Shown one piece after another: positions 3,514 through 43,977 of a stretch of DNA of 64,000 nucleotides; the first letter of the stretch is position 1; every line of letters starts with the position of its first letter. Under the pieces are notes generated by a model. The model saw only the letters and a program-made list of their open reading frames with translations. It was not told the DNA's origin and made no database searches. The stretch spans positions 10,318 to 74,317 of the forward strand of contig CAZADR010000002.1 of NCBI GenBank assembly GCA_964484005.1, given 5' to 3'. This DNA is from an uncultured Candidatus Saccharibacteria bacterium (GTDB lineage Bacteria; Patescibacteriota; Minisyncoccia; Phycocordibacterales; UBA9973). The translations under genes were made by a program, and so were the position numbers.

Positions 3514-3622
3514 CCTTGCTTTTTAGGTTTGTTTGTGGTATACTTCCAACAAATAGCAGTTCTCTGACTTTTCAATATTCACAAAACAAACGCAACACAA
3601 AAAACATCCAAAGGAGGATGCC
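3514..3622 (+). promoter_or_regulatory. Conserved promoter plus 5-prime leader, copy A (TTGCTT-N17-TGgTATACT, long UTR ending AAGGAGGATGCCATG)
   Basis: -35 TTGCTT at 3516-3521, 17-bp spacer, extended -10 TGGTATACT at 3536-3544, SD AGGAGG 7 nt before the ATG at 3623. Near-identical copies lie at 32370-32477 and 34445-34562. Confidence 0.6.
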
Positions 3623-4405
3623 ATGAGAAAGTATTTTGTTTTCTTTGTAGTTTCACTTCTTCTGGTGGCATTCTCGATGAATGCCGACCGCCGTCGCCCC
3701 GTGCGAATCGGCTCGTCAGACTCGGTGGAGGCAATCATTGCCGTCATCTATCTGGACAAGGATGGACTTCTTGTTCAGGAAGGTGATCCTTGGCATTATT
3801 GCTGGGTGTCAATGCAGTCGATGAGGCCGTTGACCTCGGGTACGACCTTCACCTACTCGGTGCAAAAACCTGGTGCAAATGAAGGTGATTTCACCTTCAT
3901 CAGATCCAACACGGTTCAACTGCATGAGGCAGGGTTTTACACTTCGTCCAGAATATATTTCAAGGACGGGTTCTATGATACCCTTTCTGACGGAAACCGT
4001 CAGGATTGGTTGCCTGGGATCGCTGTGTTCAGGGCGGAGATCCAACCTCTCAAAGGGGTGAAGACTTCGGTCATCCATAAAATACCGGTTCGTCTCGATG
4101 AACTCAGGGTGCCTCTTGGGCCCTTACAGCAGGCCATCGTCTCAGTAGATGGTAGAAGTGTCATGCTTCTGGGAGTTTTTTCAACACCTCCTTCTGCAAT
4201 GCTTTTTCATTTTTACTCCGATGGTACATGGATGAGTAATCCCGTTGGAGTCTCTCAAAACCAGTTTGTGGTTCCAGGTGGGATGTATGGTCATGGATCT
4301 CCACTGACAGTGATGTCGGGATATCCAGATGCAGAGTGCTCTACTGTGCAGGTGGACATTCCGGATACCTCCAAGAATAAGTTGTTTCGTGAAGAAGTTG
4401 AATAG
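3623..4405 (+). CDS. Secreted hypothetical protein, GC-rich, paralog of 34563..35255
   Basis: Signal peptide MRKYFVFFVVSLLLVAFSMNA followed by DRRRPVR. Shares its N-terminus and C-terminal motif (C-S/Q-T-x-Q-V-DIP) with 34563..35255. GC content is clearly above the surroundings. Confidence 0.65.
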   Translation: MRKYFVFFVVSLLLVAFSMNADRRRPVRIGSSDSVEAIIAVIYLDKDGLLVQEGDPWHYCWVSMQSMRPLTSGTTFTYSVQKPGANEGDFTFIRSNTVQLHEAGFYTSSRIYFKDGFYDTLSDGNRQDWLPGIAVFRAEIQPLKGVKTSVIHKIPVRLDELRVPLGPLQQAIVSVDGRSVMLLGVFSTPPSAMLFHFYSDGTWMSNPVGVSQNQFVVPGGMYGHGSPLTVMSGYPDAECSTVQVDIPDTSKNKLFREEVE

Positions 4406-4428: not shown

Positions 4429-4458
4429 CAGCCCCGCGCAAGCGCGGGGCTTTTTTAT
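4429..4458 (+). terminator. Rho-independent terminator
   Basis: GCCCCGCGC-AAGC-GCGGGGC stem followed by TTTTTTATTT. Confidence 0.7.
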
Positions 4459-4517
4459 TTCTAAATTTCTCATTTTATATATTCTGTGGATAACTTTTTT
4501 TTACTTGTTTTTTTATT

Positions 4518-7370
4518 TTGTTGTATAATTTACAGCATATGATAACTACATTAAAAAGCAGGTTTTTATTATTAATATTTGTTTTTTCTTTTGTAACTTT
4601 TTTAGGAATTTCCGACAAGGCCAACGCTATGGTTGATTCTAGTGGAAATATTTTTTGTGCTAGAGAAAGTTATTGGGAATTAAACAAGACGGGTGCTGTT
4701 ACTGGAACTGGAGATGAGGGGAGTGGTTATACTACTTTAGTGCCACTACATTCTTCTTCGGATACTAGCTATGATACTATTAGCCCTTTTACGGCTGGCG
4801 CCACTCTCACATATCATCGTCGCTGGGTTGGGACTGAGCCAATATCACCAAGTACTTGGAATAGTTCTTGGACTACAGAAACCTGTACCACGGGTCCACT
4901 AGATGGAAATAAATGCTCTGTGAGTGTCAGTGGTGGTTTTTACCTTAATCCCGCATACAGCGGTGGAGGTCAGGCATATGATATTTATGGTGAGCCTGCA
5001 TGTATAGAAGATGGATATGCTGGTGTTGCTTATAGTTCACCAAATAGGATAAGTGCAGGATATACTGTAAATGCAACTGTTTCCGGGGTTGGGGGATCAC
5101 CTACACCTCTTTCTCAGTCAGTAGCTGCTAACGGCACCACAAAATTTACCTTAACTCCAAGTTCTTCTTATATTGTAAATAAAGATGATGTTACTAAAAA
5201 TTCTACTGGTTGTAATTTAGGAAACGAGGCAACCGCATGGTCTGGAAACGAGTACACTACTGGTACGATTAATGCTAATTGTACTTACACTTTTTCTTTT
5301 ACAGCTATTCCTGCTGTTACTGCTTCTTGTTCCGTCTCAAGTCCGGTGGCATCTGGGGTAAATCCAAGCATTACTTTTACCACAAATTCAAGTTCAAACA
5401 ATTGTTATGTTCGTAACGACAATATTGCCTTTGGTTTTTCTCCTCAACCTGGAACAGGAGTTTCTTCTTCCGGAACAGTCTATCAGCCTGGAGTTCAGAC
5501 AGCGGGCTCTCACCAAGGCTCAATATATTGTCAAAATTCAGCCAATACAGCAAATAGTGGCTGGCAATATTGTCCGTATACAGTGAGTGCACCAGCTATT
5601 CCCGCTACTCCCACAGGTCTTACCGCTACAGCAAGCTCCTGTGGAACTGGAACGATAAATGTATCTTGGAGTGCATCTGCTGGTGCAACAAGTTACACCC
5701 TTAAAGATGGAGCTACTGTTATTTATTCTGGAGCTTCTACTTCTTATTCTCATATTGGTCTAGTTGCAGGTTCTAGTCATAGTTACACTGTTTCTGCTTC
5801 AAACGCTGCGGGTTCATCAGCATATTCAGCTGCTGTTTCAAGAACTGCTCCAGCAGCTTGTGCTCCAACCGACGCTTGTGGTAATGGTAGTAGCTCTTTT
5901 CCTAGATTAACTGAACCGACAACTAATCCAACTGCTTGTAATCCAGGAGTGTATGCAAACTCTCCAGCTGATACCACCACCTTGGGCGCTCAAGCTTGGA
6001 ATTGGTCTTGTGGCACGGTCACTTCCTGTTCTGCTCCCAAATATGGCTGTAGAGTAACGACTGACTCAAATTATAGTCTTCCTCAATATGGACCAACTGG
6101 ACCAAACAACAATTATGGTTGCGCTGGTACTTGTGCAAACGGGGGAACAGATTATTCTACCTGTACACCTCCAGTTGGTATGTCTGGAACCTTGACCACT
6201 CCTAGCTGTACGATTGCTTCCGGGTCCAGCACTTGTACCACGACTGTCTCTTGGACAGTAACTAATCCTGTAGTAGTCGGCGGCTCTTCAGTCACTTCTT
6301 CATATCCTAGTGCTGGTACAGTCGTCGCTCCTCCAGTCAGTACTGGAACTGCAGATTCAGGTACAAAAACAGGTGTAACTATTCCATATAGTTCCAGGAC
6401 TTTCTATCTTTACAACAACAATGTTCAATTAAATACAGGCACAGCTAACGCTACCTGCGCTACAGGTTCAGCCTGGAACGGAACCATCTGTTATACAGCA
6501 CCCGCTCTTCCTGATTTGACAGCCGCTTCTACTACTCCTTCTACTGCTGTAAAAAATGAAGCCAAAACTTTTTCTTCAATCGTTACAAACATTGGAGCTG
6601 CAGATACTGGTGCATCTTTCTCAAACTTCTTTCAAGTGTGTAATGTAGGAGGAGGATGTGCAACTCCAACAGATCTAGCTCCTACTACCATGACAGCTTT
6701 GGCTGGTGGAGCGACCGGTACGGCCACCAAAGATTACACCTTTACCTCTGTCGGAACATTTTCTGTTCGAGCTTGTGCAGACAAGACAAACTCTGCTTCT
6801 CTTGGTGTAATTAACGAAGGGACCATGGAAGGCAACAACTGTGGAAATTGGGCTAATGTTACTGTTTCCGATACCCCAACTCCACCTTCCAATGAAGCCC
6901 CCGTCATCACCATCTGGGCTACTCCAACTTCTGGTACCGTGAATATTGTCAAACCTACTATTCTCTGGAGTGTCGACAATGATCCGACATCTTGTGCGGC
7001 AAGTGAAGACTGGTTAGGTAGTCGAAATTACAGTGGAGCTCAAACTCAAGAACCAGCCTTAAATCAAATTAAAACTTACCGTTACACATTAATCTGCTCC
7101 AATGCTTATGGTAGTGATGAAGCTACTGCTACGGTCGCAGTGTCTGGAACTGCCTCTGGAGTAAGTATTAGTGTAAATCCTACCTCCATCTATGCTGGAG
7201 ATTCAGCCACTCTCACTTGGTCAGGCGCAGGAGCTTGTACTTATAACTTTGATACTGGTTCTAATATTGTAACTCCAAATACGACCACTACTTACACTCT
7301 TACTTGTGATGGTGTATCTTCTAGTGCTACATTGATAGTGAAGAAGAAACCGATATTTATTGAGGATTAG
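4518..7370 (+). CDS. Large secreted Cys/Thr/Ser/Gly-rich surface protein (likely start 4539, MITTLKSRFLLL signal peptide)
   Basis: Signal peptide, low-complexity T/S/G/C-rich composition, and an extended -10 TGTTGTATAAT upstream. The C-terminal ~460 aa are identical to the product of 35386..38112. Confidence 0.7.
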   Translation: MLYNLQHMITTLKSRFLLLIFVFSFVTFLGISDKANAMVDSSGNIFCARESYWELNKTGAVTGTGDEGSGYTTLVPLHSSSDTSYDTISPFTAGATLTYHRRWVGTEPISPSTWNSSWTTETCTTGPLDGNKCSVSVSGGFYLNPAYSGGGQAYDIYGEPACIEDGYAGVAYSSPNRISAGYTVNATVSGVGGSPTPLSQSVAANGTTKFTLTPSSSYIVNKDDVTKNSTGCNLGNEATAWSGNEYTTGTINANCTYTFSFTAIPAVTASCSVSSPVASGVNPSITFTTNSSSNNCYVRNDNIAFGFSPQPGTGVSSSGTVYQPGVQTAGSHQGSIYCQNSANTANSGWQYCPYTVSAPAIPATPTGLTATASSCGTGTINVSWSASAGATSYTLKDGATVIYSGASTSYSHIGLVAGSSHSYTVSASNAAGSSAYSAAVSRTAPAACAPTDACGNGSSSFPRLTEPTTNPTACNPGVYANSPADTTTLGAQAWNWSCGTVTSCSAPKYGCRVTTDSNYSLPQYGPTGPNNNYGCAGTCANGGTDYSTCTPPVGMSGTLTTPSCTIASGSSTCTTTVSWTVTNPVVVGGSSVTSSYPSAGTVVAPPVSTGTADSGTKTGVTIPYSSRTFYLYNNNVQLNTGTANATCATGSAWNGTICYTAPALPDLTAASTTPSTAVKNEAKTFSSIVTNIGAADTGASFSNFFQVCNVGGGCATPTDLAPTTMTALAGGATGTATKDYTFTSVGTFSVRACADKTNSASLGVINEGTMEGNNCGNWANVTVSDTPTPPSNEAPVITIWATPTSGTVNIVKPTILWSVDNDPTSCAASEDWLGSRNYSGAQTQEPALNQIKTYRYTLICSNAYGSDEATATVAVSGTASGVSISVNPTSIYAGDSATLTWSGAGACTYNFDTGSNIVTPNTTTTYTLTCDGVSSSATLIVKKKPIFIED

Positions 7371-7378
7371 AAGGTTTG
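5988..7378. repeat. 1.39-kb segment identical to 36730..38120 (offset 30742)
   Basis: Protein sequences are identical from GAQAWNWSCGTV to the C-terminal IFIED. The shadow ORFs 6734..6979 and 37476..37721 are identical, and DNA identity ends right after the stop codons (gattagaag). Confidence 0.85.
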
Positions 7379-7457
7379 TTTTGAATTTAATAAATTAAAA
7401 AACCTATTTTATAACCCTAAGATAGGTTTTTTTATAGTTTATTGTTAAACTTTAAGT

Positions 7458-8030
7458 ATGATACTAGAGACCAAAAGGTTGATATTAAGAAAGCCCCAAA
7501 AGAGTGACTGGAAAGACTTAGTGGAGGGAGTGGGGGAGTATGATGTCGCCAAGATGCTTTTGATGGTGCCTCATCCTTACGGGAAAAAAGATGCAGATAC
7601 TTATATAAAAACTGTAATAAAAAGATGGGCACAAAAGGTTCAAAATGACTATACTTTTTTTATTGAGTTGAAATCCGAGAAAAAAGTTATTGGAGCTATT
7701 GGAATCCACAGAATAAACATTTTTTCTGGAACTGGAACGACGGGCTCCTGGATTAATAAAAAATATTGGAGAAATGGTTATATGACCGAGGTCAAAATTG
7801 TGTTAAATGATTTTGCCTTTAATAAATTAAAATTAAGAAGATTGAATTCAGAAGTTTTTGCTGGAAATAAAGCCTCAAACGCCACTCAGTCAAAAATGGG
7901 GTATAAGCTCGAGGGAACAATGAGAAAAGCCGCGAGGTGCAAAGCATCAGGCGAAATTCATGATGAAAATACCTATGGTTTATTAAAAGAAGATTGGAAG
8001 AGGGCCAGAGCTAAGATTGTTAAAAAATAG
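7458..8030 (+). CDS. GNAT family N-acetyltransferase (RimJ/RimL-like)
   Basis: N-terminus MILETKRLILRKPQKSDWKDL and overall GNAT-like pattern; 190 aa. Confidence 0.65.
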   Translation: MILETKRLILRKPQKSDWKDLVEGVGEYDVAKMLLMVPHPYGKKDADTYIKTVIKRWAQKVQNDYTFFIELKSEKKVIGAIGIHRINIFSGTGTTGSWINKKYWRNGYMTEVKIVLNDFAFNKLKLRRLNSEVFAGNKASNATQSKMGYKLEGTMRKAARCKASGEIHDENTYGLLKEDWKRARAKIVKK

Positions 8031-8035
8031 TTTTT

Positions 8036-8473
8036 ATGGAAACAAAGTTAAATGAAATAGGAAATGAATTTAAATGCCCCGTGGCCATTGTCGTGAAAGA
8101 GGGGAAAATATTGACTGGGCATCGTCATTATACAAAAGATAAATGGAAGGAAATTTCTGTTTGGACTATACCAGGCGGTAGGTGTGATTCTGGTGAAACT
8201 TTAAGGCAAGCTCTCACCAGAGAGATACAAGAAGAAGTAGGAATCACGGAATTTGAAATAGTAGATTTTATAGGAGAAGCACCAGGGGCAAAAGAGGGGG
8301 ACAGTGTGCCTATGTTTTTCTGTACGACAGAGCAAGATTTTATACTAATGGAACCAGAAAAGTTTTCTGAATGGAAATGGGTAACAAAAGATGAATACAT
8401 AAATGAGGACAAATACAGTGGTTTTAATCCTGTGGTAAAAAATTTGATTGTGGAATATCTAAAAAATCTATGA
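8036..8473 (+). CDS. NUDIX hydrolase
   Basis: Nudix box GGRCDSGETLRQALTREIQEEVGI. Confidence 0.75.
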   Translation: METKLNEIGNEFKCPVAIVVKEGKILTGHRHYTKDKWKEISVWTIPGGRCDSGETLRQALTREIQEEVGITEFEIVDFIGEAPGAKEGDSVPMFFCTTEQDFILMEPEKFSEWKWVTKDEYINEDKYSGFNPVVKNLIVEYLKNL

Positions 8474-8499
8474 AAAAGTGGGTATTTTTGAAATAAAAA

Positions 8500-9006
8500 A
8501 TGAGCAAAGAAAATTTAAATAAAATACTTATAGTTGGAGATATGGGAAGAGGAAAGTCCACTCTTGCAGAGAAACTTTCTAAAAAATTGGGGATACCGTA
8601 TTATTCTACTGACGATTTTTACTATGAGATAAAATTCTCAAAAGTACGAGATAGGCCAGAAAGTATTGAAAAAATACTAGAAGTTTACAAAACAGATAAA
8701 TGGATTGTTGAGGGTACGACTAAACGTCTTATTGAAAATGGTTTGCACTCCGCAGATTTAATTATTCATCTTCAGCATAAAAATATACCGACGCAGTGGG
8801 TGATTCTTTTTAAAAGATATTTGGGAAGAGAAAATGAAACAATCTTTGGATTATTTGGTCTTATGAAACATTCTTTGTTTAAAAAATATAAAATTGGTTA
8901 TAGAAAAGGTAAAGAAACACCCACAGAGACTATTGAGCCACATAAACATAAAGTAGTTAAGCTTTCTTCTTTTAAAGAAATAGATAAATTTATGGATTCA
9001 TTGTAA
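8500..9006 (+). CDS. P-loop NTPase / small-molecule kinase-like protein
   Basis: Walker A GDMGRGKST near the N-terminus; 168 aa, adenylate-kinase/topology-modulation-like. Confidence 0.5.
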   Translation: MSKENLNKILIVGDMGRGKSTLAEKLSKKLGIPYYSTDDFYYEIKFSKVRDRPESIEKILEVYKTDKWIVEGTTKRLIENGLHSADLIIHLQHKNIPTQWVILFKRYLGRENETIFGLFGLMKHSLFKKYKIGYRKGKETPTETIEPHKHKVVKLSSFKEIDKFMDSL

Positions 9007-9011
9007 ATTTT

Positions 9012-9899
9012 ATGGAAATTAAAAAAAGAAAATTTTTGAGTAAAATACACAAAGAATTTCCAGACTTAAGGTGGAAGAATGCAGAACATAATGTAGAGGG
9101 GTGGGATCATTATGTAATTATTTTAGATGATAAATATGTTTTTCGTTTTCCTCGAGCAAAAAAATATTTAAAGAAATTAAAAAATGAAATTCTTTTACTT
9201 AAGTATTTAAAAGACAAAGTTGAAGTTTCTATTCCCGAGTATACCTATATTGCAAAAGATAAGAGCTTTGCAGGATATTCTTTGATTCCGGGAATACAGC
9301 TAAAGAGGAAAGTATTTAAAACTATACCAAACAAAACGAGGAATCTTCTCGCCAAACAAATTGCAGATTTTCTTTCTTCTTTACATAAAACATCACATAA
9401 AGTTGCCAAACAGTACGGCGTTAAGAGTATAAAAACACAGAAACAATATAGAGAACTGGTGGTAAATACAAGTAAATATATTTTTCCTAGAATTTCTAAA
9501 AAAGAGCAGCTTCTTATTAATGATTATCTAAAAGAATTTAAGAATTATTTAAAGTTTCCCAAAAAAGTTTTTACCCACAATGATTTTTACTCCAAGCATA
9601 TTCTTTTGGGAAAAAACAAAAAATATATTTCAGGGATTATAGATTTTTCTGACAGAAAGATAGACGACCCCGCCCGAGATTTTAGTGAACTTTGGGATTA
9701 TGGAGAAAAATTCACGCTAGAAGTGTATAAAAATTATAAAGGCCACAAAGACAAAGATTTTTTAAAACGATCAATGCTGTATTATAAAAGAATCCCTCTT
9801 TGGACGATGATTTCTCCATTTCAGGGTGGTCGTGGTAAGTTTAAAAAAGGATATAAAGCATTTAAGCTGTTATTTAATAGTAAAAATAAGCTGGTATAA
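9012..9899 (+). CDS. Aminoglycoside/choline-kinase-type phosphotransferase (APH-like)
   Basis: Catalytic-loop-like HNDFYSKHILL and IIDFSD (DFG-like) motifs; 295 aa. Confidence 0.6.
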   Translation: MEIKKRKFLSKIHKEFPDLRWKNAEHNVEGWDHYVIILDDKYVFRFPRAKKYLKKLKNEILLLKYLKDKVEVSIPEYTYIAKDKSFAGYSLIPGIQLKRKVFKTIPNKTRNLLAKQIADFLSSLHKTSHKVAKQYGVKSIKTQKQYRELVVNTSKYIFPRISKKEQLLINDYLKEFKNYLKFPKKVFTHNDFYSKHILLGKNKKYISGIIDFSDRKIDDPARDFSELWDYGEKFTLEVYKNYKGHKDKDFLKRSMLYYKRIPLWTMISPFQGGRGKFKKGYKAFKLLFNSKNKLV

Positions 9900-15825: not shown

Positions 15826-15858
15826 AGATTATCTTAATTTTGATTATACTACAAAAAT

Positions 15859-16380
15859 TTAATTATTTTCAACCAGTTTTTTTACTTTTACCAACCTCTC
15901 TTCGGGTGAACCGACAACTTCAATAAATGGAATCTCGTGCTTTTTAAAAATATCTCTGACTTTCTTGTCTATAGCTTGTTGGAATTCTTTATCAGTTGTC
16001 CTCACTCCATCATCTTCGATTTCAAATTGACCACTAGGTAAATACAAAACCAAATCATAATTGTTGAATCTTGGTACTAGTGTTTCTGTGGCGAATTCAA
16101 TCAAAGAAGATTCTTCGGAAAATAAGTGGTGTATATAAGCAAGGAGGTCTATAGAGGAGCGATCCGCTACCCATTTGCCTTCCGTGTTTTCGAGCTCAAT
16201 TTGTTTTTCAATTAGCCAAAGCTCTGTCTCTGTCGTAGCAGTCTCATCAAGAGCATACCCCGCTTCTTTTGCGAGGCGTGCTGCTTCGGGCAGGATTTCA
16301 AAGTCTGGGTATTCTTTATTTATTTGTTCGGCCAAGGTGGTCTTGCCTACTCCTTGAGCTCCGGTGATTACGATTTTCAT
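15859..16380 (-). CDS. P-loop NTPase (AAA-family kinase-like)
   Basis: Walker A GAQGVGKTTLAEQ; 173 aa. Confidence 0.5.
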   Translation of the reverse strand: MKIVITGAQGVGKTTLAEQINKEYPDFEILPEAARLAKEAGYALDETATTETELWLIEKQIELENTEGKWVADRSSIDLLAYIHHLFSEESSLIEFATETLVPRFNNYDLVLYLPSGQFEIEDDGVRTTDKEFQQAIDKKVRDIFKKHEIPFIEVVGSPEERLVKVKKLVENN

Positions 16381-16404
16381 AAAAGTTTCATAATTATTTT
16401 GTAA

Positions 16405-18285: not shown

Positions 18286-18291
18286 CCTAAG

Positions 18292-19842: not shown

Positions 19843-19847
19843 GTTAT

Positions 19848-20477: not shown

Positions 20478-20480
20478 AAC

Positions 20481-32369: not shown

Positions 32370-32477
32370 CCTTGCTTTTTGAGTTTATTTGTGGTATACT
32401 TTAGGTGATAGAGTAGCTCTTCGACAACTTTTCACTAAACAAACAATAAACAAAAATGACATTCAAAGGAGGATGCC
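32370..32477 (+). promoter_or_regulatory. Conserved promoter plus 5-prime leader, copy B
   Basis: TTGCTT (32372-32377), 17-bp spacer, TGGTATACT (32392-32400), leader ending AAAGGAGGATGCCATG at the rSAM start. Confidence 0.6.
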
Positions 32478-34444: not shown

Positions 34445-34562
34445 TTGCTTGACTTGCTTTTTGAGTTTGTTTGTGGTATATTTACCCCAAAGAAGCACAG
34501 TTCTCTGACTTTTCAATATTCACTAAACGAACACAACACAAATTCATCCGAAGGAGGATGCC
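34445..34562 (+). promoter_or_regulatory. Conserved promoter plus 5-prime leader, copy C
   Basis: TTGCTT (34454-34459), 17-bp spacer, TGGTATATT (34474-34482); CAGTTCTCTGACTTTTCAATATTCAC..AAC.CAACAC block shared with copy A; ends GAAGGAGGATGCCATG. Confidence 0.6.
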
Positions 34563-35290: not shown

Positions 35291-35320
35291 TTGCCCCGCA
35301 CTTGTGCGGGGCTTTTTTAT
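35291..35320 (+). terminator. Rho-independent terminator
   Basis: GCCCCGCA-CTTG-TGCGGGGC followed by TTTTTTATTT; homologous to the 4429-4458 terminator. Confidence 0.7.
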
Positions 35321-35385
35321 TTGTAAACATTTTGTGTTGATAACTTTCTTCACTTACTTTTTATTTTGCTGTATAATTAAAATCT

Positions 35386-38112
35386 ATGAAATCTATTATA
35401 AAAGGCAGATTTTTATTATTAATTTTTGTTTTATCATTTTTATCATTATTTGGTTTCTCTAGTCAGGCTCAGGCATTGACCATGGCACCAGATTTTAGTG
35501 TGACTTCTTTTACTTTATCTGCAGATCAAAACACTATTACTTTTACAGCAGATGGAAATTCTGGATATTTATATTCTAGTTGTGGTGCTGATGTTTTAGA
35601 GCCTCATTATGAAGGTGGTCCTTATACTTATACTCCTTATGCTATGTCTAGCGGAACTATTTCTGCAGGTTCTGTCTCAGGGACAATATCTTCTGGGGAA
35701 ATTGCAAAGTTAACTAATGGACAAACGGGCACACCTTGCGATGACCCAGCCAGGTCTTCCCCAACAGGCAATGTTGTTCCCGGTACTCCAGGAACTTTTA
35801 CAGTAACAAACAAAACCCTTAATGTTTCTAGTTTGGCCAATGGTTCATACACTCTTTCTGTTTCACTTTGTGCGACTGCCGGAGTATGTAGTGTTGCTAC
35901 TAGGGCTTTTACTATAAATAATAGAGTAACTAGTTTTAATGTTACAGCAACTGCCGGTACTGGTGGTTCCGTTTCTTCTCCTTGTTCTGTGGCGAGCGGA
36001 AATACTTCCGCAACATGTAGTAATATTAATGCTTTGTCTGGGTATTCTTTAACTCAAGCTGTAGAATTTACTCCTTCTAATTGTGCCACTGGGGGCTCTT
36101 TTTCTGGAAATGCATATACTACAGGAAATGTTAATGTTAATAATTGTAATGTAAAATTTAACTTTGCTCCTGTAGGCACAGTTTCCGGCTATCATGACGG
36201 AGCTTCAGGCACAGTTGCTTCTACTTCCTGTAACGCAAATGGCTGGGCAGCTTTTTCAACACTACCAGGAACAGACTTAACAATAGGAATAATAAGTGAT
36301 GGGGTAGCAGTGTACTATGGTCCTGCTGGGGAGTATAGAGGAGACCTGACAGGACAGTGCACAAGTGGAACTTGTGCATATAATGTGGACTTGAGTAGTC
36401 GTATTTCTTCTGGAGTAAATCACTCAATCACTGTTCAAGCTCAAAATCCTAATACTTCGGCTTGGGTGACTCTAGGTGGAAGTCCAAAGACATTAAATTG
36501 TACAGCAGTACCTCCACCACCTTGTGGAAATGGTGCCAATAATCCTCCAACTTGTACTACCTGTACTTCACCCCTTGTTTGGAACGGTAGCTCGTGTGTA
36601 GCACCTTCAACCGATGCTTGTGGTACTTATAGCGGTATTACCCCTAGACTCACTGAACCAACCACAAATCCTACTGCATGTAACCCAGGCACATATGCAA
36701 ACTCTCCAGCGGACACCGCTACTCTCGGTGCTCAAGCTTGGAATTGGTCTTGTGGCACGGTCACTTCCTGTTCTGCTCCCAAATATGGCTGTAGAGTAAC
36801 GACTGACTCAAATTATAGTCTTCCTCAATATGGACCAACTGGACCAAACAACAATTATGGTTGCGCTGGTACTTGTGCAAACGGGGGAACAGATTATTCT
36901 ACCTGTACACCTCCAGTTGGTATGTCTGGAACCTTGACCACTCCTAGCTGTACGATTGCTTCCGGGTCCAGCACTTGTACCACGACTGTCTCTTGGACAG
37001 TAACTAATCCTGTAGTAGTCGGCGGCTCTTCAGTCACTTCTTCATATCCTAGTGCTGGTACAGTCGTCGCTCCTCCAGTCAGTACTGGAACTGCAGATTC
37101 AGGTACAAAAACAGGTGTAACTATTCCATATAGTTCCAGGACTTTCTATCTTTACAACAACAATGTTCAATTAAATACAGGCACAGCTAACGCTACCTGC
37201 GCTACAGGTTCAGCCTGGAACGGAACCATCTGTTATACAGCACCCGCTCTTCCTGATTTGACAGCCGCTTCTACTACTCCTTCTACTGCTGTAAAAAATG
37301 AAGCCAAAACTTTTTCTTCAATCGTTACAAACATTGGAGCTGCAGATACTGGTGCATCTTTCTCAAACTTCTTTCAAGTGTGTAATGTAGGAGGAGGATG
37401 TGCAACTCCAACAGATCTAGCTCCTACTACCATGACAGCTTTGGCTGGTGGAGCGACCGGTACGGCCACCAAAGATTACACCTTTACCTCTGTCGGAACA
37501 TTTTCTGTTCGAGCTTGTGCAGACAAGACAAACTCTGCTTCTCTTGGTGTAATTAACGAAGGGACCATGGAAGGCAACAACTGTGGAAATTGGGCTAATG
37601 TTACTGTTTCCGATACCCCAACTCCACCTTCCAATGAAGCCCCCGTCATCACCATCTGGGCTACTCCAACTTCTGGTACCGTGAATATTGTCAAACCTAC
37701 TATTCTCTGGAGTGTCGACAATGATCCGACATCTTGTGCGGCAAGTGAAGACTGGTTAGGTAGTCGAAATTACAGTGGAGCTCAAACTCAAGAACCAGCC
37801 TTAAATCAAATTAAAACTTACCGTTACACATTAATCTGCTCCAATGCTTATGGTAGTGATGAAGCTACTGCTACGGTCGCAGTGTCTGGAACTGCCTCTG
37901 GAGTAAGTATTAGTGTAAATCCTACCTCCATCTATGCTGGAGATTCAGCCACTCTCACTTGGTCAGGCGCAGGAGCTTGTACTTATAACTTTGATACTGG
38001 TTCTAATATTGTAACTCCAAATACGACCACTACTTACACTCTTACTTGTGATGGTGTATCTTCTAGTGCTACATTGATAGTGAAGAAGAAACCGATATTT
38101 ATTGAGGATTAG
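35386..38112 (+). CDS. Large secreted Cys/Thr/Ser/Gly-rich surface protein (paralog of 4518..7370)
   Basis: Signal peptide MKSIIKGRFLLLIFVLSFLSLFGFSSQAQA, divergent N-terminal ~450 aa, C-terminal ~460 aa identical to the paralog; extended -10 TGCTGTATAAT upstream. Confidence 0.7.
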   Translation: MKSIIKGRFLLLIFVLSFLSLFGFSSQAQALTMAPDFSVTSFTLSADQNTITFTADGNSGYLYSSCGADVLEPHYEGGPYTYTPYAMSSGTISAGSVSGTISSGEIAKLTNGQTGTPCDDPARSSPTGNVVPGTPGTFTVTNKTLNVSSLANGSYTLSVSLCATAGVCSVATRAFTINNRVTSFNVTATAGTGGSVSSPCSVASGNTSATCSNINALSGYSLTQAVEFTPSNCATGGSFSGNAYTTGNVNVNNCNVKFNFAPVGTVSGYHDGASGTVASTSCNANGWAAFSTLPGTDLTIGIISDGVAVYYGPAGEYRGDLTGQCTSGTCAYNVDLSSRISSGVNHSITVQAQNPNTSAWVTLGGSPKTLNCTAVPPPPCGNGANNPPTCTTCTSPLVWNGSSCVAPSTDACGTYSGITPRLTEPTTNPTACNPGTYANSPADTATLGAQAWNWSCGTVTSCSAPKYGCRVTTDSNYSLPQYGPTGPNNNYGCAGTCANGGTDYSTCTPPVGMSGTLTTPSCTIASGSSTCTTTVSWTVTNPVVVGGSSVTSSYPSAGTVVAPPVSTGTADSGTKTGVTIPYSSRTFYLYNNNVQLNTGTANATCATGSAWNGTICYTAPALPDLTAASTTPSTAVKNEAKTFSSIVTNIGAADTGASFSNFFQVCNVGGGCATPTDLAPTTMTALAGGATGTATKDYTFTSVGTFSVRACADKTNSASLGVINEGTMEGNNCGNWANVTVSDTPTPPSNEAPVITIWATPTSGTVNIVKPTILWSVDNDPTSCAASEDWLGSRNYSGAQTQEPALNQIKTYRYTLICSNAYGSDEATATVAVSGTASGVSISVNPTSIYAGDSATLTWSGAGACTYNFDTGSNIVTPNTTTTYTLTCDGVSSSATLIVKKKPIFIED

Positions 38113-38190: not shown

Positions 38191-39951
38191 ATGCAAATAA
38201 ACGAAGAACAGCTAAAGAAGTCTATTTTAGAATCTGGTCTCGTCTCTAAAACAGATTTTGAAGAAGCGCTAAAAAAAGCTGAAGAAAAAAAACAAAAAGT
38301 TGGAAATATTTTAATTTCTGAAGGAAAAATATCAGAAACAGACCTAAAACAAATGGAAGCTTTTGTTTTGGGTATTCCTTTCATTAATCTAAATAATGAA
38401 AAGATAGATGCCGCTGTTCTTTCATTGATTCCTGAGCCAATCGCCCGAAATGACAATATTGTCGCTTACAAAAAGACAGACAACAGTCTAGAAGTGGCAA
38501 TGCTCGATGTGGATGATTTGCCAGTTATTGATTTTATAAAAAAACGTTCTGGTTTAAAAATTTTACCTCGTTTGACAGATACTTCTTCCATCAAATCTGT
38601 GCTCGTCCAATATCGCCAGAGCCTAAAGGCGGAATTTCAAGATATCATTAAAAAAGAATCCGATTCGTTGGGGGATTCAATCGACGAAGAGGGAGATAAG
38701 CCTCACGAAAAATCGGAAAATGAATTGAAAGAAATGGCAGAAGATTTGCCAGTGGTAAAGATAGTAGATTCTCTTGTCTTTCATGCTATTTTACAAAATG
38801 CTTCAGACATCCATATCGAGCCAGGGGAGAAAAACCTCACCGTGCGTTACCGTATCGACGGTATCTTGCACGATGCGATGGTGCTCGATAAAAATGCTGG
38901 TCTTGGTATCACTGCGCGTATAAAAGTTTTGACCAATTTAAAACTTGATGAAAAAAGATTGCCCCAAGATGGTAGATTTAAAATAGAACAAAATGGAGAA
39001 AAGATTTCTTTTCGTGTTTCCACCTTGCCTACTTTCTTTGGAGAAAAAACAGTTATCAGAATCTTGAAAGAAAATTCTCACGGTTTTTCTTTGGAGACCC
39101 TTGGTTTTCACGGAGAAGGACTTGAGCTTATACATAACTCAATGAAATTAAAAACAGGTATGGTGCTTGCTACTGGTCCGACTGGAAGTGGAAAGACAAC
39201 GACCCTTTATACCATGTTAGATATTTTAAATAGACCTGAAGTAAATATTTCTACCGTTGAAGATCCGATAGAATATCAAATGCCGAGAGTAAACCAGACT
39301 CAAGTTAAACCAGAAATTGGATTAACTTTTGCCAATGGACTTCGTTCTCTCCTCCGACAAGATCCAGATATCGTGATGGTGGGGGAGATTCGTGACGGAG
39401 AGACGGCAGGTCTCGCCATTAATGCTTCTCTCACAGGGCACTTGGTATTGTCTACTATCCATACCAACTCAGCCGCAGGTGCCATCCCTAGACTTATAGA
39501 TATGGGAGTAGAGCCTTTTCTTATTACCGCTACCGTCAAGACAATCATTGCCCAGAGGCTCGTTCGTCGTCTTACTGAAAAAAAAGAAAAATATTTTTTA
39601 TCATCAGCTGAGATAAAAAATCTTGGAAAAATTGTAGACATAGACAGAGTGCTTACTTTCTTAAAAACAGAAAAAATAATATCAGATGACAGTACAATTG
39701 AAAAAATTCCGTTTTATAAAGCGATAAAAAATGGTGAATTTGAAGATGGGTATTCCGGTCGCATAGGTATGCATGAAGTATTAAAGGTAACATCATCTAT
39801 TAGAGAAATGATTTTAAAAGGAAGTTCTCAGGACGAGGTAGAGGCACAGGCTAAAAAAGAAGGGATGCTCACCATGCTCGAAGATGGAGTATTTCAATCC
39901 GTTTTAGGGGTGACGACACTAGAAGAAGTGTTTCGTGTGGTTTCTGAATAA
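38191..39951 (+). CDS. pilB: Type IV pilus assembly ATPase PilB / GspE family
   Basis: GspE N-terminal domain, Walker A GPTGSGKTTTLYTML, Asp box and His box regions; 586 aa. Confidence 0.85.
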   Translation: MQINEEQLKKSILESGLVSKTDFEEALKKAEEKKQKVGNILISEGKISETDLKQMEAFVLGIPFINLNNEKIDAAVLSLIPEPIARNDNIVAYKKTDNSLEVAMLDVDDLPVIDFIKKRSGLKILPRLTDTSSIKSVLVQYRQSLKAEFQDIIKKESDSLGDSIDEEGDKPHEKSENELKEMAEDLPVVKIVDSLVFHAILQNASDIHIEPGEKNLTVRYRIDGILHDAMVLDKNAGLGITARIKVLTNLKLDEKRLPQDGRFKIEQNGEKISFRVSTLPTFFGEKTVIRILKENSHGFSLETLGFHGEGLELIHNSMKLKTGMVLATGPTGSGKTTTLYTMLDILNRPEVNISTVEDPIEYQMPRVNQTQVKPEIGLTFANGLRSLLRQDPDIVMVGEIRDGETAGLAINASLTGHLVLSTIHTNSAAGAIPRLIDMGVEPFLITATVKTIIAQRLVRRLTEKKEKYFLSSAEIKNLGKIVDIDRVLTFLKTEKIISDDSTIEKIPFYKAIKNGEFEDGYSGRIGMHEVLKVTSSIREMILKGSSQDEVEAQAKKEGMLTMLEDGVFQSVLGVTTLEEVFRVVSE

Positions 39952-39958
39952 AATTAAT

Positions 39959-41179
39959 ATGCTTTTTTTATACAAAGCAAAATCAAAAACAGGAGAGATA
40001 ACTGAGGGGGAGCAAGAATCCCTTGATCGTTTTTCTTTAAATAAAGATCTCAAATCTCGTGGATTTACTCCTTTGTCGATTGTTGAAAAAAATAAAACTT
40101 TTGGTGGTAATTTTTCTATAAATTTTTCTAATATTTTTTCAAAAGTAAAGATTTCTGAACAAATTATTTTTACTAAAAATTTGAGCGGAATGATAAAAGC
40201 AGGTCTTTCCCTCAGTCGCGCTTTGTCAGTTTTGAGAAAACAAACAAAAAACCAGAAACTAAATGATATATTTTTATCTATTTCAAATGACATAAATGCA
40301 GGGGCGACTTTTTCTTCTGCTTTAGCAAAGTTTCCCGAAGTTTTTTCCAAATTATTTATATCGATGGTCAGAGCTGGTGAAGAGTCTGGAAATCTAGCTG
40401 GTTCCTTGTCTGATATAGCTTTAAACTTAGAAAAAGCAAACTCTTTAACAAAAAAAATAAAAGGAGCACTCATCTATCCAGGGGTCATAATGTCTGCTAT
40501 GGTGGTCATCGGAGTTTTGATGTTTGCTTTTGTGGTTCCTACCTTGGCAAATACTTTCAAAGAGCTCGGTGTCACACTGCCTCTCTCTACCAGAGCCCTT
40601 ATCTTTTTCGGTAACTTTTTTTCCAATCATCTCATTTTGACTTTTGCGATTATCTTATCTATTGCCTTTGGTTTCTTTATGCTTTTTCGTTCAAAATTTA
40701 TGGCAAAATATATCGATTTTGTACTTATGAAAATTCCAGTTATCGGAACCATGGCGAGAGAGTTAAATACTGCTCGTACAGCGAGAACCATCTCATCTCT
40801 TTTGTTGTCTGGGGTTTCTATTACTCGTGCAGTGGAAATCACCGAGGATGTCGTACAAAATATTTACTATAAAAAAGTTTTAAAGGAAGCTAGAATAGCG
40901 ATAGAAAAAGGAGCTCCGTTTTCTGAAGCTTTTGAGAAAAATACCAATCTTTACCCAGTGATGATGTCTGAGATGGTTCAGGTTGGAGAGGAGACAGGGA
41001 AACTTTCCGACATGTTGCTCCAAATTGCTCTTTTTTACGAAGAGGAAATTGAAAATAAAACAAGAAATCTTTCGACCATTATCGAACCAATATTGATGAT
41101 ATTTATTGGTTCAGGTGTTGGGTTTTTTGCCATCTCCATGATTTCTCCACTTTATTCAATATTAGGAAGCATTGGTTAA
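39959..41179 (+). CDS. pilC: Type IV pilus platform protein PilC / GspF family
   Basis: Two GspF repeats and polytopic membrane segments; the start is taken at the ATG at 39959, just after the pilB stop. Confidence 0.8.
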   Translation: MLFLYKAKSKTGEITEGEQESLDRFSLNKDLKSRGFTPLSIVEKNKTFGGNFSINFSNIFSKVKISEQIIFTKNLSGMIKAGLSLSRALSVLRKQTKNQKLNDIFLSISNDINAGATFSSALAKFPEVFSKLFISMVRAGEESGNLAGSLSDIALNLEKANSLTKKIKGALIYPGVIMSAMVVIGVLMFAFVVPTLANTFKELGVTLPLSTRALIFFGNFFSNHLILTFAIILSIAFGFFMLFRSKFMAKYIDFVLMKIPVIGTMARELNTARTARTISSLLLSGVSITRAVEITEDVVQNIYYKKVLKEARIAIEKGAPFSEAFEKNTNLYPVMMSEMVQVGEETGKLSDMLLQIALFYEEEIENKTRNLSTIIEPILMIFIGSGVGFFAISMISPLYSILGSIG

Positions 41180-41181
41180 TA

Positions 41182-41649
41182 ATGAAAAATTTTTATCAAA
41201 AAGGAATAACTATTTTTGAATTATTGATAGTTTTTGCTATTTTAGGAGCCATCTTAGCTGTTACTATTCCACAATTTTCAAAAATTAGAGAATTACAAGT
41301 TGTAAAATCAGCCGTGCAAGAGGTTTTGTCATCTATTGATAGGGCTAGGTCAGACTCTCTTTCTTCCTTAGATTCTTCCGAATATGGTGTGCATTTAGAG
41401 TCCGATAAGATTATAATTTTTAAAGGAATGATTTTTTCTGAAGGAGCAGGCGATAATGAAATCATAAGTATCACTTCTCCCGCGACAGTCTCCAATGTTA
41501 CTTTTGGTGGGGTCAGCGCTTCTTCTGGAGATGTTTATTTCAATCGTCTTTCGGGTTCACCTAGCAAGACAGGAACTATCACTATTTCTTCTCCAAATTA
41601 TTCAAAAATAATAACAATCTTAGCTACGGGTGTCGCAAGTGTGAATTAA
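41182..41649 (+). CDS. Prepilin-type (type IV pilin / pseudopilin) protein
   Basis: N-terminus MKNFYQKG|ITIFELLIVFAIL has a class III signal with Gly at -1 and Glu at +5. Confidence 0.7.
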   Translation: MKNFYQKGITIFELLIVFAILGAILAVTIPQFSKIRELQVVKSAVQEVLSSIDRARSDSLSSLDSSEYGVHLESDKIIIFKGMIFSEGAGDNEIISITSPATVSNVTFGGVSASSGDVYFNRLSGSPSKTGTITISSPNYSKIITILATGVASVN

Positions 41650-41652
41650 ATT

Positions 41653-42189
41653 ATGAGATTTTTTCTAAAAAATAAAAAAAGTGGCTTTACCCCCACACCT
41701 TTTGGAAAAAAAGGTGTGAGCCTACAAAGTAGGCGGGGGTTTATGGCAGTTGAGATATTGGTGGCTGTGTCAATCATCACAGCTTCTGTTTTAGCCATGA
41801 TGGCAGTCTCTCAAAAATCAGTTTTTATTTCTAGGCAGTCTTTTCATTCTGCACAAGCAGCATTCTTGTTAGAAGAGGGAGCAGAGGCAATCAGAATATT
41901 TAGAGATGATGCATGGACCAATATTTCTAGTCTTACTCCATCCACAGATTATTATCCAACTTTTTCTGGTGGGACATGGGTTTTGAGTAGTACACCAAAC
42001 ACAGTTGGTATTTTTACTCGTACTGTCAGTATCGCCAGCGTAAATCGCGACGATACCTCAAAAGATATTTCAGAAGTGGGCACAGATGATATAGACACTA
42101 AGCTGATCACTGTTACAGTATCTTGGCCGGAGGGAGGGGTGACGGTCACTAAAACATTACAGTTTTACATAATGAATATTTTCTCATAA
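41653..42189 (+). CDS. Prepilin-type protein with unusually long leader
   Basis: ...SRRG|FMAVEILVAVSII: G at -1, E at +5, preceded by about 28 residues; the real start may be a downstream codon. Confidence 0.55.
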   Translation: MRFFLKNKKSGFTPTPFGKKGVSLQSRRGFMAVEILVAVSIITASVLAMMAVSQKSVFISRQSFHSAQAAFLLEEGAEAIRIFRDDAWTNISSLTPSTDYYPTFSGGTWVLSSTPNTVGIFTRTVSIASVNRDDTSKDISEVGTDDIDTKLITVTVSWPEGGVTVTKTLQFYIMNIFS

Positions 42190-42193
42190 GAAT

Positions 42194-42700
42194 ATGAAAA
42201 AATTTTTTAAAAACAAAAAAAGAAAACAGGGCTACGCCATCTTAGAACTTCTTTTTTATATTACACTTTTTTCTATCCTTTCATTTGTATTAATCAATGC
42301 AATGATAATAATGTCTAAATCTTTTAAACAAACTGTTATCCAGACCGAGTTGATGCAGACGGGAAATCTTCTAGAAAGAATAAGTAGAGAGATAAGGGGG
42401 GCTTATGGAATAAACACTATCAGTGTAAATAGTTTGATATTGAATACCAAAGATGATGCTGATGTAAATAAAACAGTACAGTTTTTAATTTCAGGTTCAG
42501 ATTTGCAATTTTTAGAAAATGGAGTTTTGGTGGGCAACTTAAATACGCCAGATTTGCAGGTTATCGCACTTTCTTTTACGGATATAACCACCGCACAGGG
42601 CAAAGCAATCAAGGTATTTTTAACTGTAAAATCTGTAAATGATACTTCGGGTCGCACAGAAGATTTCTATAACACAGTTGTATTGCGGGGTGGTTATTAA
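42194..42700 (+). CDS. Prepilin-type protein
   Basis: MKKFFKNKKRKQG|YAILELLFYITLF has a prepilin cleavage motif with Glu at +5. Confidence 0.65.
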   Translation: MKKFFKNKKRKQGYAILELLFYITLFSILSFVLINAMIIMSKSFKQTVIQTELMQTGNLLERISREIRGAYGINTISVNSLILNTKDDADVNKTVQFLISGSDLQFLENGVLVGNLNTPDLQVIALSFTDITTAQGKAIKVFLTVKSVNDTSGRTEDFYNTVVLRGGY

Positions 42701-42714
42701 ATTATATTTTATAA

Positions 42715-43977
42715 ATGAAAAAACAAAAAGAAAGAAAAATAAATAAACAAAAAGGAGCAGCTATGTTGATATCAGTAGTATTTTTTCTTTTTATTTCTCT
42801 GGCGATAGTTTCTGGACTCGTTTCTCCGGCGGTGAGAGAATTTAAAATTTCGAGTGACTTGATAAGGTCTCGCCAAAGCTTGTTTTTATCTGAGTCAGGA
42901 ATAGAGGATGCATATTTTAGATTAAAAACAGCGAAACCAATCGCTTCTATTACTTATTTAACCCTTGGAGGAAATACTGCCACTACTACCATAACTGACT
43001 CTGGTTATAATGAAAAAACAATCAATACATTAGGAGATGTTTCTTCTAGGCAAAGAGTAAATAAAGTAGTGCTTTCTACTGGTACAGGAGTTTCTTTTAG
43101 TTATGGGGTGCAGGCGGGACTCGGGGGTTTTACTATTGGTAATGCGACAATAAATGGAAATGTTTATTCAAATGGAACAATAGAAGGGGCGAATGGCGCG
43201 ATCATAACTGGCTCTGCTTTTTCTGCAGGAGCTTCTGGGCTTATAGATAATATCGATGTCGGCCAGTCGGGAACAGGAGATGCCAGAGCCCACGTTGTTA
43301 CAAATTCTAACATTACAGGCAATCTATATTGTCAAAGTGGAACAGGGAACAATAAAGCATGTGACACATCACAAGCAGATCCTGCCACCACCAGTATGCC
43401 GATTACGGAAGCCATGTTTGATAAATGGAAAGCCGACGCAGAATTGGGTGGAATTATAACTGGAGATTTGACCATATCAACACCTTCGATTCTCGGTCCT
43501 AAAAAAATTACAGGCAATTTAGCCATAAATAGTGACGTTGTTATTTCTGGTACTCTTTATGTAGTAGGAAACATCACTACAAACAATGGAGCCCAGGTTT
43601 CTTTGGATAGTTCTTATGGCCCTACAGGCGGTATCATAGTGACCGATGGGCGTGTCACTCTTTCTAATAATGTAAATTTTGCTGGTTCTGGAAGTGAGGG
43701 TTCTTATGTTCTGTTAGCTACGACGAGCCCTTGTCCATCTGGATGCTCTGGTTTAAATGCTTTGGAGATTTTAAATAATGTGGGGGCCATCCTAGTAAGT
43801 GCGCAATACGGCACAGTGCACTTGAACAACAATGTTGCCTTAAATGAAGTGGTAGGTAATAGAATAATTGTAGATAACAGTGCTGAAGTTACCTATGTTT
43901 CTGGTTTGGCTAGCACTCTTTTTACCTCTGGGCCTTCTGGTGGATGGAGCATAAAGTCTTGGAAAGAGGTCAAATGA
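42715..43977 (+). CDS. Membrane-anchored Gly/Thr/Asn-rich protein, probable pilus-associated component
   Basis: N-terminal TM helix then repetitive G/T/N/S-rich sequence suggestive of beta-helix; last gene of the pilus cluster. Confidence 0.4.
   Translation: MKKQKERKINKQKGAAMLISVVFFLFISLAIVSGLVSPAVREFKISSDLIRSRQSLFLSESGIEDAYFRLKTAKPIASITYLTLGGNTATTTITDSGYNEKTINTLGDVSSRQRVNKVVLSTGTGVSFSYGVQAGLGGFTIGNATINGNVYSNGTIEGANGAIITGSAFSAGASGLIDNIDVGQSGTGDARAHVVTNSNITGNLYCQSGTGNNKACDTSQADPATTSMPITEAMFDKWKADAELGGIITGDLTISTPSILGPKKITGNLAINSDVVISGTLYVVGNITTNNGAQVSLDSSYGPTGGIIVTDGRVTLSNNVNFAGSGSEGSYVLLATTSPCPSGCSGLNALEILNNVGAILVSAQYGTVHLNNNVALNEVVGNRIIVDNSAEVTYVSGLASTLFTSGPSGGWSIKSWKEVK

Follow-up and report, generated by a model that had tools for sequence, protein, structure and literature searches.

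Why should two short genes for secreted proteins be the most GC-rich coding sequences in a stretch of an otherwise AT-rich genome? The question is raised by a 64,000-nucleotide (nt) stretch of contig CAZADR010000002.1 (positions 10,318 to 74,317 of the forward strand; assembly GCA_964484005.1) from an uncultured Candidatus Saccharibacteria bacterium, hereafter the window. A first-pass annotation of this DNA had picked out two plus-strand open reading frames (ORFs), ORF-A (3623-4405, 260 amino acids (aa)) and ORF-B (34563-35255, 230 aa), as small secreted paralogs, possibly of horizontal origin or under an unusual constraint, for example on the RNA. By sequence comparison, their high GC is a conserved, long-maintained trait of a protein family and not the trace of a recent transfer. 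The explanation we favor, to which we give an even chance, is that each gene forms a self-contained unit encoding a secreted adhesin or pilus partner with two immunoglobulin (Ig)-like domains, the composition of which has been under long-term selection at the level of the mRNA or its translation.

Base composition was compared across the window (GC 36.7%) using its approximately 60 ORFs as the reference set. Mean GC of these ORFs was 0.361 (standard deviation (sd) 0.055) and mean GC at third codon positions (GC3; A3, G3, C3 and T3 denote single bases at this position, and GC2 denotes GC at second positions) was 0.292 (sd 0.072). ORF-A (GC 0.485, GC3 0.506) and ORF-B (GC 0.512, GC3 0.485) took the top two ranks for both measures (z about +2.3 to +3.0), and their composition was atypical for the host at all three codon positions. 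A 500-nt GC profile rose at both genes, and the elevation ended sharply at the ORF boundaries; the GC-rich string quoted by the first-pass annotation (atgccgaccgccgtcgccccgtgcgaatcggc) was located at 3681-3712, within ORF-A. The contrast with flanking genes that had been described was reproduced, also in the windowed profile proposed as its check. GC in the window is patchy, with other genes reaching 0.43-0.46, so that ORF-A and ORF-B form the upper end of a wide spread instead of standing alone as outliers.

The same elevation was found wherever DNA of family members was available, namely at relatives' loci L006, L008, L009/L010, L011, L013, L016 and L019 in addition to the window. Small genes at these loci had GC of 0.485-0.59 and GC3 of 0.47-0.71, as compared to GC3 of 0.23-0.45 in their neighbors, so that homologs do share the GC content, as the first-pass annotation had suggested checking. 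At L020, the only GC-rich contig sampled (0.62), the small gene had a GC of 0.55, below that of its flank, and GC3 of the small genes correlated weakly with background GC3 (r = 0.35). Third-position identity between paralogs was 0.26-0.32, where we estimate chance identity at this base composition at approximately 0.26; third positions are thus saturated between members. At such saturation any donor composition would have eroded, yet GC3 is high in these genes.

About half of the GC excess is synonymous. Given their amino acids and background codon use, ORF-A and ORF-B would be expected to have GC of 0.413 and 0.440, respectively, as compared to the observed 0.485 and 0.512; the proteins contain little K, I, E and N but much V, P, S, T and Q, and the remaining excess of approximately 0.07 is synonymous in both genes. 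Relative to background, A3 in the window's two ORFs was decreased (0.17 vs 0.35), G3 was increased (0.26 vs 0.15), C3 was also increased, and T3 was unchanged. The third-position shift had the same direction in 11/11 family genes, with T3 often unchanged, and the codons favored (CTG, TCG, CCG, CAG and AAG) were rare in the rest of the window. This strand asymmetry favors selection on the transcript or on translation over a cause at the level of DNA. The opposite bias was seen in the pilins and in the large secreted protein encoded beside each small gene (T3 0.44-0.50). Elsewhere in the window, MetK and AdoHcyase genes (14638-17664) reach GC3 of 0.41-0.44 via a T-to-C shift, unlike the small family. 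An ORF at 45926-46582 (218 aa, GC 0.458, GC3 0.47), which comes just after PGK where the pilus cluster ends, shares with the small family its A-to-G pattern at third positions; the ORF is equipped with a Shine-Dalgarno (SD) site of its own and a strong terminator-like hairpin at approximately 46596-46624, no signal peptide was found, and its product matched nothing in Pfam, NCBIfam or PHROGs.

Evidence that both ORFs are translated and related was obtained from their alignments. BLASTP aligned ORF-A and ORF-B over their full length (26% identity, E 2e-11), and they are, by this measure, real and anciently diverged paralogs, as had been proposed. Among family members, identity by codon position followed the order second, first, third in 21/21 pairwise comparisons, from which it follows that the sense frame is the translated frame. 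Together with confident AlphaFold models, this codon-position conservation speaks against the two ORFs being untranslated, the case in which the first-pass annotation would have withdrawn its claim.

Both products were judged by eye from sequence to begin with a Sec signal peptide that is followed directly by a basic motif, in line with the initial description of a signal peptide and DRRRP(A/V)R in each. In ORF-A, MRKYFVFFVVSLLLVAFSMNA (residues 1-21) precedes DRRRPVR (residues 22-28, nt 3686-3706), and in ORF-B, MRKFVMYFLVAVFLCSAFSLSA (residues 1-22) precedes DRRRPAR (residues 23-29, nt 34629-34649). The family-wide form of the motif after the signal peptide is (Q)RRRAV.HPS, and the family C-terminus reads ...SGYPDSEC.T..VDIP, conserved in ORF-A as ...SGYPDAEC.T..VDIP; ORF-B has a C-terminal cysteine pair (C201, C209). 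Small proteins of the near clade have a looser K..F(S/R).E tail. The two AlphaFold models had predicted local distance difference test scores (pLDDT) of 80 and 83, the latter for ORF-A, and predicted template modeling scores (pTM) of 0.72 and 0.75. The basic segment was predicted to be disordered (pLDDT < 50 at residues 21-31 in ORF-A and 21-36 in ORF-B), and the remainder was predicted to be an all-beta body of tandem Ig-like domains in ORF-A and a tandem Ig-like beta-sandwich in ORF-B. When tested for fold class, the predicted all-beta sandwich domains had structural matches to the Ig-like class only. These matches, to secreted matrix and accessory proteins with tandem Ig-like or fibronectin type III (FnIII) domains, for example Vibrio cholerae RbmA (4be5) and curli CsgC (2y2y), are of the generic beta-sandwich kind at 5-14% identity, no Foldseek match fell below E 1e-3, and they justify no functional inference.

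Pfam-A, NCBIfam and PHROGs returned zero family matches for both small proteins. Relatives were collected with a word-indexed search (13 relatives), a profile search run exhaustively against 1.84 billion representatives (41 clusters) and a scan of a genome collection for further loci (2 loci); none has an assignment in Pfam, NCBIfam or PHROGs, and two metagenome scans for further family loci found none. Orthologs of ORF-A have 62-63% identity and are encoded at the syntenic loci L006 and L013. Judged from these searches, the small protein family is lineage-specific to Saccharibacteria-type bacteria of the candidate phyla radiation (CPR).

Each small gene is the first of two genes in a duplicated cassette, with the order promoter, leader, small ORF, terminator, second promoter and large secreted protein. 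In cassette A (all features on the plus strand), a promoter-like element at 3516..3544 (TTGCTT-N17-TATACT with a TG extension; TGGTATACT) is followed by a CA-rich 5' leader at 3545..3622, conserved in alignments of 3 window copies and 8 other loci, that contains the box AGTTCTCTGAC (3558-3568) and AGGAGG (3612-3617). ORF-A ends in an intrinsic terminator at 4430..4458 (AGCCCCGCGC-AAGC-GCGGGGCT then TTTTTTATTT) with a 9 bp stem of which 8 are GC pairs and a T-run (4430-4451), and the large gene has its own predicted promoter at 4500..4529 (TTTACT-18-TATAAT, 10/12 consensus matches). Cassette B, also on the plus strand, has a copy of the 29-nt promoter-like motif at 34454..34482, an aligned leader at 34483..34562 (box at 34499-34509, AGGAGG at 34552-34557), an intrinsic terminator at 35293..35322 (8 bp stem, 7 GC pairs and T-run, 35293-35312) and, from a promoter scan, a separate promoter for its large gene at 35349..35377 (TTCACT-17-TATAAT). 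AGGAGG lies 5 nt before each ATG, and both the AGGAGG sites and the GC-clamp terminators are as first annotated.

The 29-nt promoter motif has exactly 3 copies in the window, as compared to 0 expected; the third was found by motif match, with its leader, at 32372..32477 (plus strand), ahead of a radical SAM/SPASM gene. L006, L011 and L013 retain the motif, and its extended -10 is further shared by L008, L009 and L019; promoter A is absent from the list of the consensus scanner because its -35 matches at just 3/6 positions. Exact copies of the leader box were found in the window at the two small-gene leaders only, and when the box was used to search for a regulon, no gene other than the two small ones turned up. 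The window leaders were predicted to be unstructured (folding z +0.29 for A and -0.67 for B), and distant relatives have a hairpin directly 5' of the SD. A terminator of like form recurs at the equivalent place in cassette B, L006, L011 and L013. Taken together, the extended -10 promoter, open leader, perfect SD and strong terminator suggest that the message is abundant and monocistronic, and it is from this anatomy that we infer high expression. Just upstream of the promoter of large gene A, a perfect DnaA-box-like 9-mer (TGTGGATAA) is present at 4485-4493 and is conserved at this place in L011 and L013, with TTATCCACA in L008 and L018; matches to TGTGGATAA with one mismatch were mildly enriched in the window (31 vs 19.5 expected) and did not cluster.

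The radical SAM/SPASM gene (32478-33575) and a 50-aa precursor-like ORF (33535-33687) look, within the region 32372-33727, like a small cluster of the ribosomally synthesized and post-translationally modified peptide (RiPP) type. The 50-aa ORF, which would encode a short exported product, has GC3 of 0.65 and A3 of 0.14 beside an ordinary-GC maturase gene, a signature in common with the small genes that speaks for a link between high expression and GC-rich sequence; it is Cys/Asp-rich (MDKLLELISVTGIERSDVGRELFLYSGDCDCSPDTDDCSNPNDCDCDCAP), has its own AAAGGAGG site and is followed by a 12-15 bp hairpin. The radical SAM insertion, between the NusA side and cassette B, occurs in this genome only, and its leader is closer to the L011 small-gene leader than to that of ORF-B. 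A GIY-YIG nuclease-type segment is present in two copies with approximately 86% identity (19843-20173 and 32018-32350), the second of which is directly upstream of the radical SAM insertion, and a further GIY-YIG gene lies at approximately 29943-30221. Those near cassette B are part of an insertion specific to this genome, which L008 and L011 lack.

In every locus the small gene adjoins a giant CARDB-type surface protein gene, and in most cases NusA lies on one side of it and a type IV pilus cluster on the other. Loci of the B type (L008, L009, L011/L012 and L018) have the order NusA, small gene, large gene, PilB, PilC, pilins, TIM and PGK; in L016 and the P0042 contig, also of the B type, the large gene comes before the small one. 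Loci of the A type (L006 and L013) have the same neighborhood as cassette A in the window, with histidine-kinase, SET-domain and membrane-protein genes. Synteny holds out to the weakest detectable member, P0042 (E 2e-6). In the window, the pilus cluster is directly downstream of cassette B (38191..43977, plus strand) and by Pfam comprises PilB (T2SSE and MshEN), PilC (T2SSF) and pilins, of which one has an N-methylation motif and three further genes are pilin-like; the same cluster order is repeated in L008, L009, L016 and the P0042 contig. ORF-B and its counterparts in all B-type loci are two genes upstream of pilB, but ORF-B has its own promoter and terminator, and ORF-A is not near pilus genes. 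For the small protein, a part as an accessory in surface attachment is suggested by its invariant pairing with the large, variable one and by the place of its gene in front of the pilus genes.

The large partners themselves are of a different composition. Large partner A (4539..7370, plus strand) has 943 aa, is secreted and contains 32 Cys and a G+A+S+T fraction of 0.49; large partner B (35386..38112, plus strand) has 908 aa, with a divergent N-terminal half and a C-terminal 500 aa that is 99% identical to that of A. Between them the two secreted partners have 32-36 Cys and are both rich in G/A/S/T (0.49), and searches of Pfam, NCBIfam and PHROGs gave nothing for them except a weak, sub-threshold match to CARDB. 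Their genes have a GC of 0.43 that is elevated at the second codon position only (GC2 0.61, GC3 0.25-0.26), which identifies it as an effect of amino acid composition; at third positions T3 is 0.50 and G3 is 0.08. Over their final 1,383 nt (5988-7370 and 36730-38112) these genes show 100% identity, and all differences between A and B within the C-terminal region are in 5873-5987. N-terminal modules are mosaic between genomes. These observations suggest that gene conversion has recently acted on a constant C-terminal stalk or anchor to which variable N-terminal modules are joined, with assembly collapse as the alternative. Both window proteins end in KKKPIFIED, and the tag KKKPIFIE followed by D, N or E (7344-7367 and 38086-38109 in the window) recurs in L006, L009, L011 and L016 and, as KRQPDFIEN, in L008, across large partners that are only 40-58% identical. 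From its conservation, the tag may serve in C-terminal sorting or anchoring.

Folding of family mRNAs was assessed as the z-score of their minimum free energy (MFE) against synonymous shuffles that preserve protein and codon usage and, in a stricter version, against shuffles within 30-codon blocks. All 11 of 11 family mRNAs were more stable than their global shuffles (z -1.7 to -6.6, mean -3.6), mean z against block shuffles was -3.2, and the values for ORF-A were -4.4 (global) and -3.2 (block). Fourteen ordinary control genes had a mean z of -0.6 (sd 1.5), with one at -4.4, and the family differed from all 30 controls by Mann-Whitney U test (p = 3.6e-4). Among GC-matched controls, ordinary genes were at approximately -1 and other GC-rich outliers at -5 to -15 (global); with block shuffles, ordinary genes were at -0.4 to -1.7. 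A discrete RNA element in the coding sequence was considered and rejected, as local z-profiles do not align between members, and Rfam covariance models had no match anywhere in the window. The excess of mRNA structure is real and family-wide, yet it is general to GC-rich outlier genes, and there is no discrete embedded RNA. Of the suggestions in the first-pass annotation, that of an unusual constraint holds as a category, with half of the excess synonymous and 11/11 mRNAs excess-structured. Its specific form, a constraint on the RNA, has only moderate support: it fits the structure in all 11 messages and is weakened by the diffuseness of that structure, the lack of an Rfam match, the excess in other outliers and the half of the GC that is due to amino acids.

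These results can be assembled into the following mechanism. The small protein would be exported by Sec and would present a short, disordered, basic mature N-terminus (DRRRP(V/A)R, (Q)RRRAV family-wide), followed by two Ig-like domains. It would most likely be an accessory partner of the adjacent adhesin or of the pilus, docking through the flexible N-terminal segment. Selection would most likely act on the mRNA, favoring a message that is compact, poor in A and stable and that encodes a surface component made in abundance, and the shift from A-ending to G/C-ending codons would have been kept through the complete turnover of third positions. Both binding and selection on the mRNA are what we infer from the architecture, fold class and codon pattern described above.

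Several observations weigh against this explanation. Excess structure is not specific to the family: MetK had z-scores of -2.2 (global) and -4.0 (block), genes of the GC-rich island in L006 had -4.7 to -7.4 (block) and down to -15 (global), and an ORF unrelated to the small family (25514-26374, minus strand) had -4.4 (global) and -2.8 (block). Within the family, the excess is diffuse along the gene. The radical SAM gene under the third copy of the promoter and leader has an ordinary GC3 of 0.29, so a strong promoter alone does not predict a GC-rich coding sequence, and the likely abundant HU, trigger factor, ClpP, TIM, PGK and pilin have low GC3 (0.22-0.30), from which it follows that the bias of the small genes is not the usual expression-linked codon pattern of this genome. 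The role of the protein is suggested by gene neighborhood and fold class only, and co-variation of small-protein type with the N-terminal type of the large partner was not supported, as those modules are mosaic. The GC-rich block in L006 (17318-20511, with 7221-9269) encodes tRNA-synt_1b, Glycos_transf_3 and ADH at GC3 of 0.47-0.58 in a relative that is otherwise AT-rich, and the ORF at 25514-26374, beside the gene for trigger factor, is of ordinary GC (0.35) and encodes 286 aa, the only match of which, a weak one, is apolipoprotein-like (coiled-coil).

A stronger version of the favored explanation, which we regard as unlikely, is that the mRNA itself is strongly selected lineage-wide to be A-poor, of approximately 50-59% GC and highly folded, whatever the GC of the genome (local backgrounds sampled ranged from 0.37 to 0.62), and that the protein uses its conserved basic N-terminal segment to dock onto the giant, KKKPIFIED-tailed adhesin or the pilus as part of an undescribed host-attachment module of Saccharibacteria. 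If true, the message of these ultra-small episymbionts would be expected to act at the RNA level or to be exceptionally long-lived. Selection could instead act on translation and not on RNA stability, with G/C-ending codons tuning elongation, which would either be slowed by locally rare codons for co-translational export and folding of the beta-sandwich or be matched to a particular state of tRNAs or their modification (a tRNA scan of the window found no tRNA genes). A strand-specific, synonymous shift toward codons that are rare in the window would fit this account, as would the export of the products and the like bias of the 50-aa exported precursor-like ORF. The large partner and the pilins are also exported, however, and are biased oppositely (T3 0.44-0.50), the ORF at 45926-46582 shares the A-to-G pattern without a signal peptide, and excess structure comes from the arrangement of codons itself, because the shuffles preserve codon usage. 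We give translation-level selection a minority chance. That nothing special is at work, and that the GC excess is merely a by-product of the amino acids of an extracellular, beta-rich protein, accounts for part of the observations: amino acids alone raise the expected GC from 0.36 to 0.41-0.44, and the large gene is GC-elevated purely via GC2. Against this, observed GC is a further 0.07 above that expectation in both genes, GC3 is 0.49-0.51 as compared to the window mean of 0.29, and the large gene combines GC-rich amino acids with a GC3 of 0.25. As a complete explanation the by-product account is refuted by GC3, and we consider it quite improbable, although it stands for about half of the effect.

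Causes at the level of DNA or of ancestry have to contend with the strand asymmetry of the shift. GC-biased gene conversion, frequent recombination or another local mutational bias at a surface-protein locus could draw on the gene conversion that clearly operates nearby, where the large genes share 1,383 nt at 100% identity, and on the mosaic N-terminal modules of these genes. Gene conversion as the cause of the GC was nonetheless rejected, as the converted segment itself has low GC3 (0.25); the small genes, at 26% identity, cannot convert each other, biased conversion is strand-symmetric whereas A3 falls far more than T3, and the elevation stops sharply at the ORF boundaries, all of which leaves a DNA-level bias with a slim chance. 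An overlapping antisense gene might also constrain the sequence, since in B-type genes the antisense frame that is in register with the codons has almost no stops, being open for 166-242 codons with 1-3 stops in ORF-B (W_B; 34755-35330, minus strand), L008, L009 and L011. A-type genes, however, have 6-8 stops at similar GC3, the deficit of stops in B-type genes is marginal (6 observed vs 12.6 expected from family codon use), avoidance of A3 is general (CAA, AAA, GTA and CCA) and not limited to TTA, CTA and TCA, and codon-position conservation fits the sense frame. The antisense ORF was rejected as a driver, its open frame being judged a by-product of A3-poor codon usage, and we regard this account as very improbable.

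Horizontal acquisition, raised by the first-pass annotation, would mean that the small genes or their ancestor came from a GC-richer donor and retained its composition. It could draw on the atypical composition at all three codon positions, on other possibly imported GC-rich patches in these genomes (such as the L006 island at 17318-20511), on the mobile-type GIY-YIG genes near cassette B, and on L020, where the gene is lower in GC than its flank and so does not follow its host in composition. The family is, however, restricted to one lineage, its synteny beside NusA and the pilus cluster is kept to the limit of detection, GC3 is high in every member despite saturated third positions, and promoter and leader are native, being common to another gene (radical SAM). 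A search for phage or plasmid relatives was negative (tblastn against phages and plasmids gave no matches, and PHROGs gave none). The base shift is moreover strand-asymmetric: from a donor rich in GC one would expect T3 to be lowered along with A3, and T3 is often unchanged, which speaks against a donor. On these comparisons recent transfer is largely refuted, and to horizontal acquisition we attach only a slight probability.

Under the explanation we favor, selection on an abundant message for a surface accessory protein, the unit has parallels in known kinds of system. Units for abundant surface proteins, such as the S-layer gene slpA of Lactobacillus and genes with stable mRNAs of the ompA type, have a stabilizing 5' hairpin. 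The small-gene units resemble them in their predicted monocistronic make-up, in which a strong promoter, conserved leader and perfect SD precede, and a strong terminator follows, a gene for an exported, probably structural product. They differ in that the leader is short and unstructured, and neither a lattice-forming nor a cell-wall-anchoring domain was found.

Saccharibacteria and related members of the CPR spend their lives attached to other bacteria as hosts, and to bind them they need their type IV pili (PMC11623550, PMC9894109). Few of the surface proteins that act together with such pili are known, and an unannotated secreted family offers a concrete candidate, the more so as the B type, its main copy, heads one pilus locus and is paired with a giant, variable, adhesin-like protein; no such small protein is described in a study of Saccharibacteria pili (PMC11623550). 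The nearest functional parallel is with TcpF and CofJ, Sec-exported exoproteins of type IVb pili (the toxin-coregulated pilus (TCP) of V. cholerae and the CFA/III (colonization factor antigen III) pilus of enterotoxigenic Escherichia coli (ETEC), respectively; PMC10120004, PMC6048534), the disordered mature N-terminus of which docks on the pilus tip (PMC10120004). TcpF and CofJ have no sequence or structural homology to each other, and missing homology is therefore no argument against the analogy. Like them, ORF-A and ORF-B encode small Sec-exported non-pilins with a disordered N-terminus and a beta-sandwich body; ORF-B adjoins a type IV pilus gene set, though as a transcription unit of its own. 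The disordered segment is shorter, however (approximately 10-15 residues vs approximately 24), and its motif is basic (RRRP/RRRAV) and has no conserved aromatic residue, whereas theirs needs a critical aromatic. The genes also have their own promoter and terminator, are paired with a giant surface protein and not with a minor pilin, and in ORF-A include a second copy away from pilus genes. No secretin domain was found by Pfam among the pilus-cluster genes scanned. Saccharibacteria-type bacteria are not known to have an outer membrane, and pilus-mediated export would therefore be unnecessary. By analogy, the small protein may act like TcpF and CofJ, although it does not belong with them.

With regard to composition, selection for unusually high structure in coding sequences is reported to be widespread across life (Gebert et al. 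2019, PMC6544989). The small genes agree with this in that their synonymous codon arrangement gives structure beyond that of shuffles preserving protein and codon usage; they differ in that the effect is family-wide in at least 11 genomes and is coupled with a strand-asymmetric rise in GC3 in AT-rich genomes. The family is a clean natural example of a strand-specific synonymous composition held over long times against mutational bias, and could be used to test what selects on synonymous sites in tiny, AT-rich genomes. Set beside these systems, what is newly defined is an unannotated, Ig-fold, secreted protein family of putative accessory type; its synonymous composition, probably under selection, is of a kind already known, and neither amounts to a new kind of mechanism.

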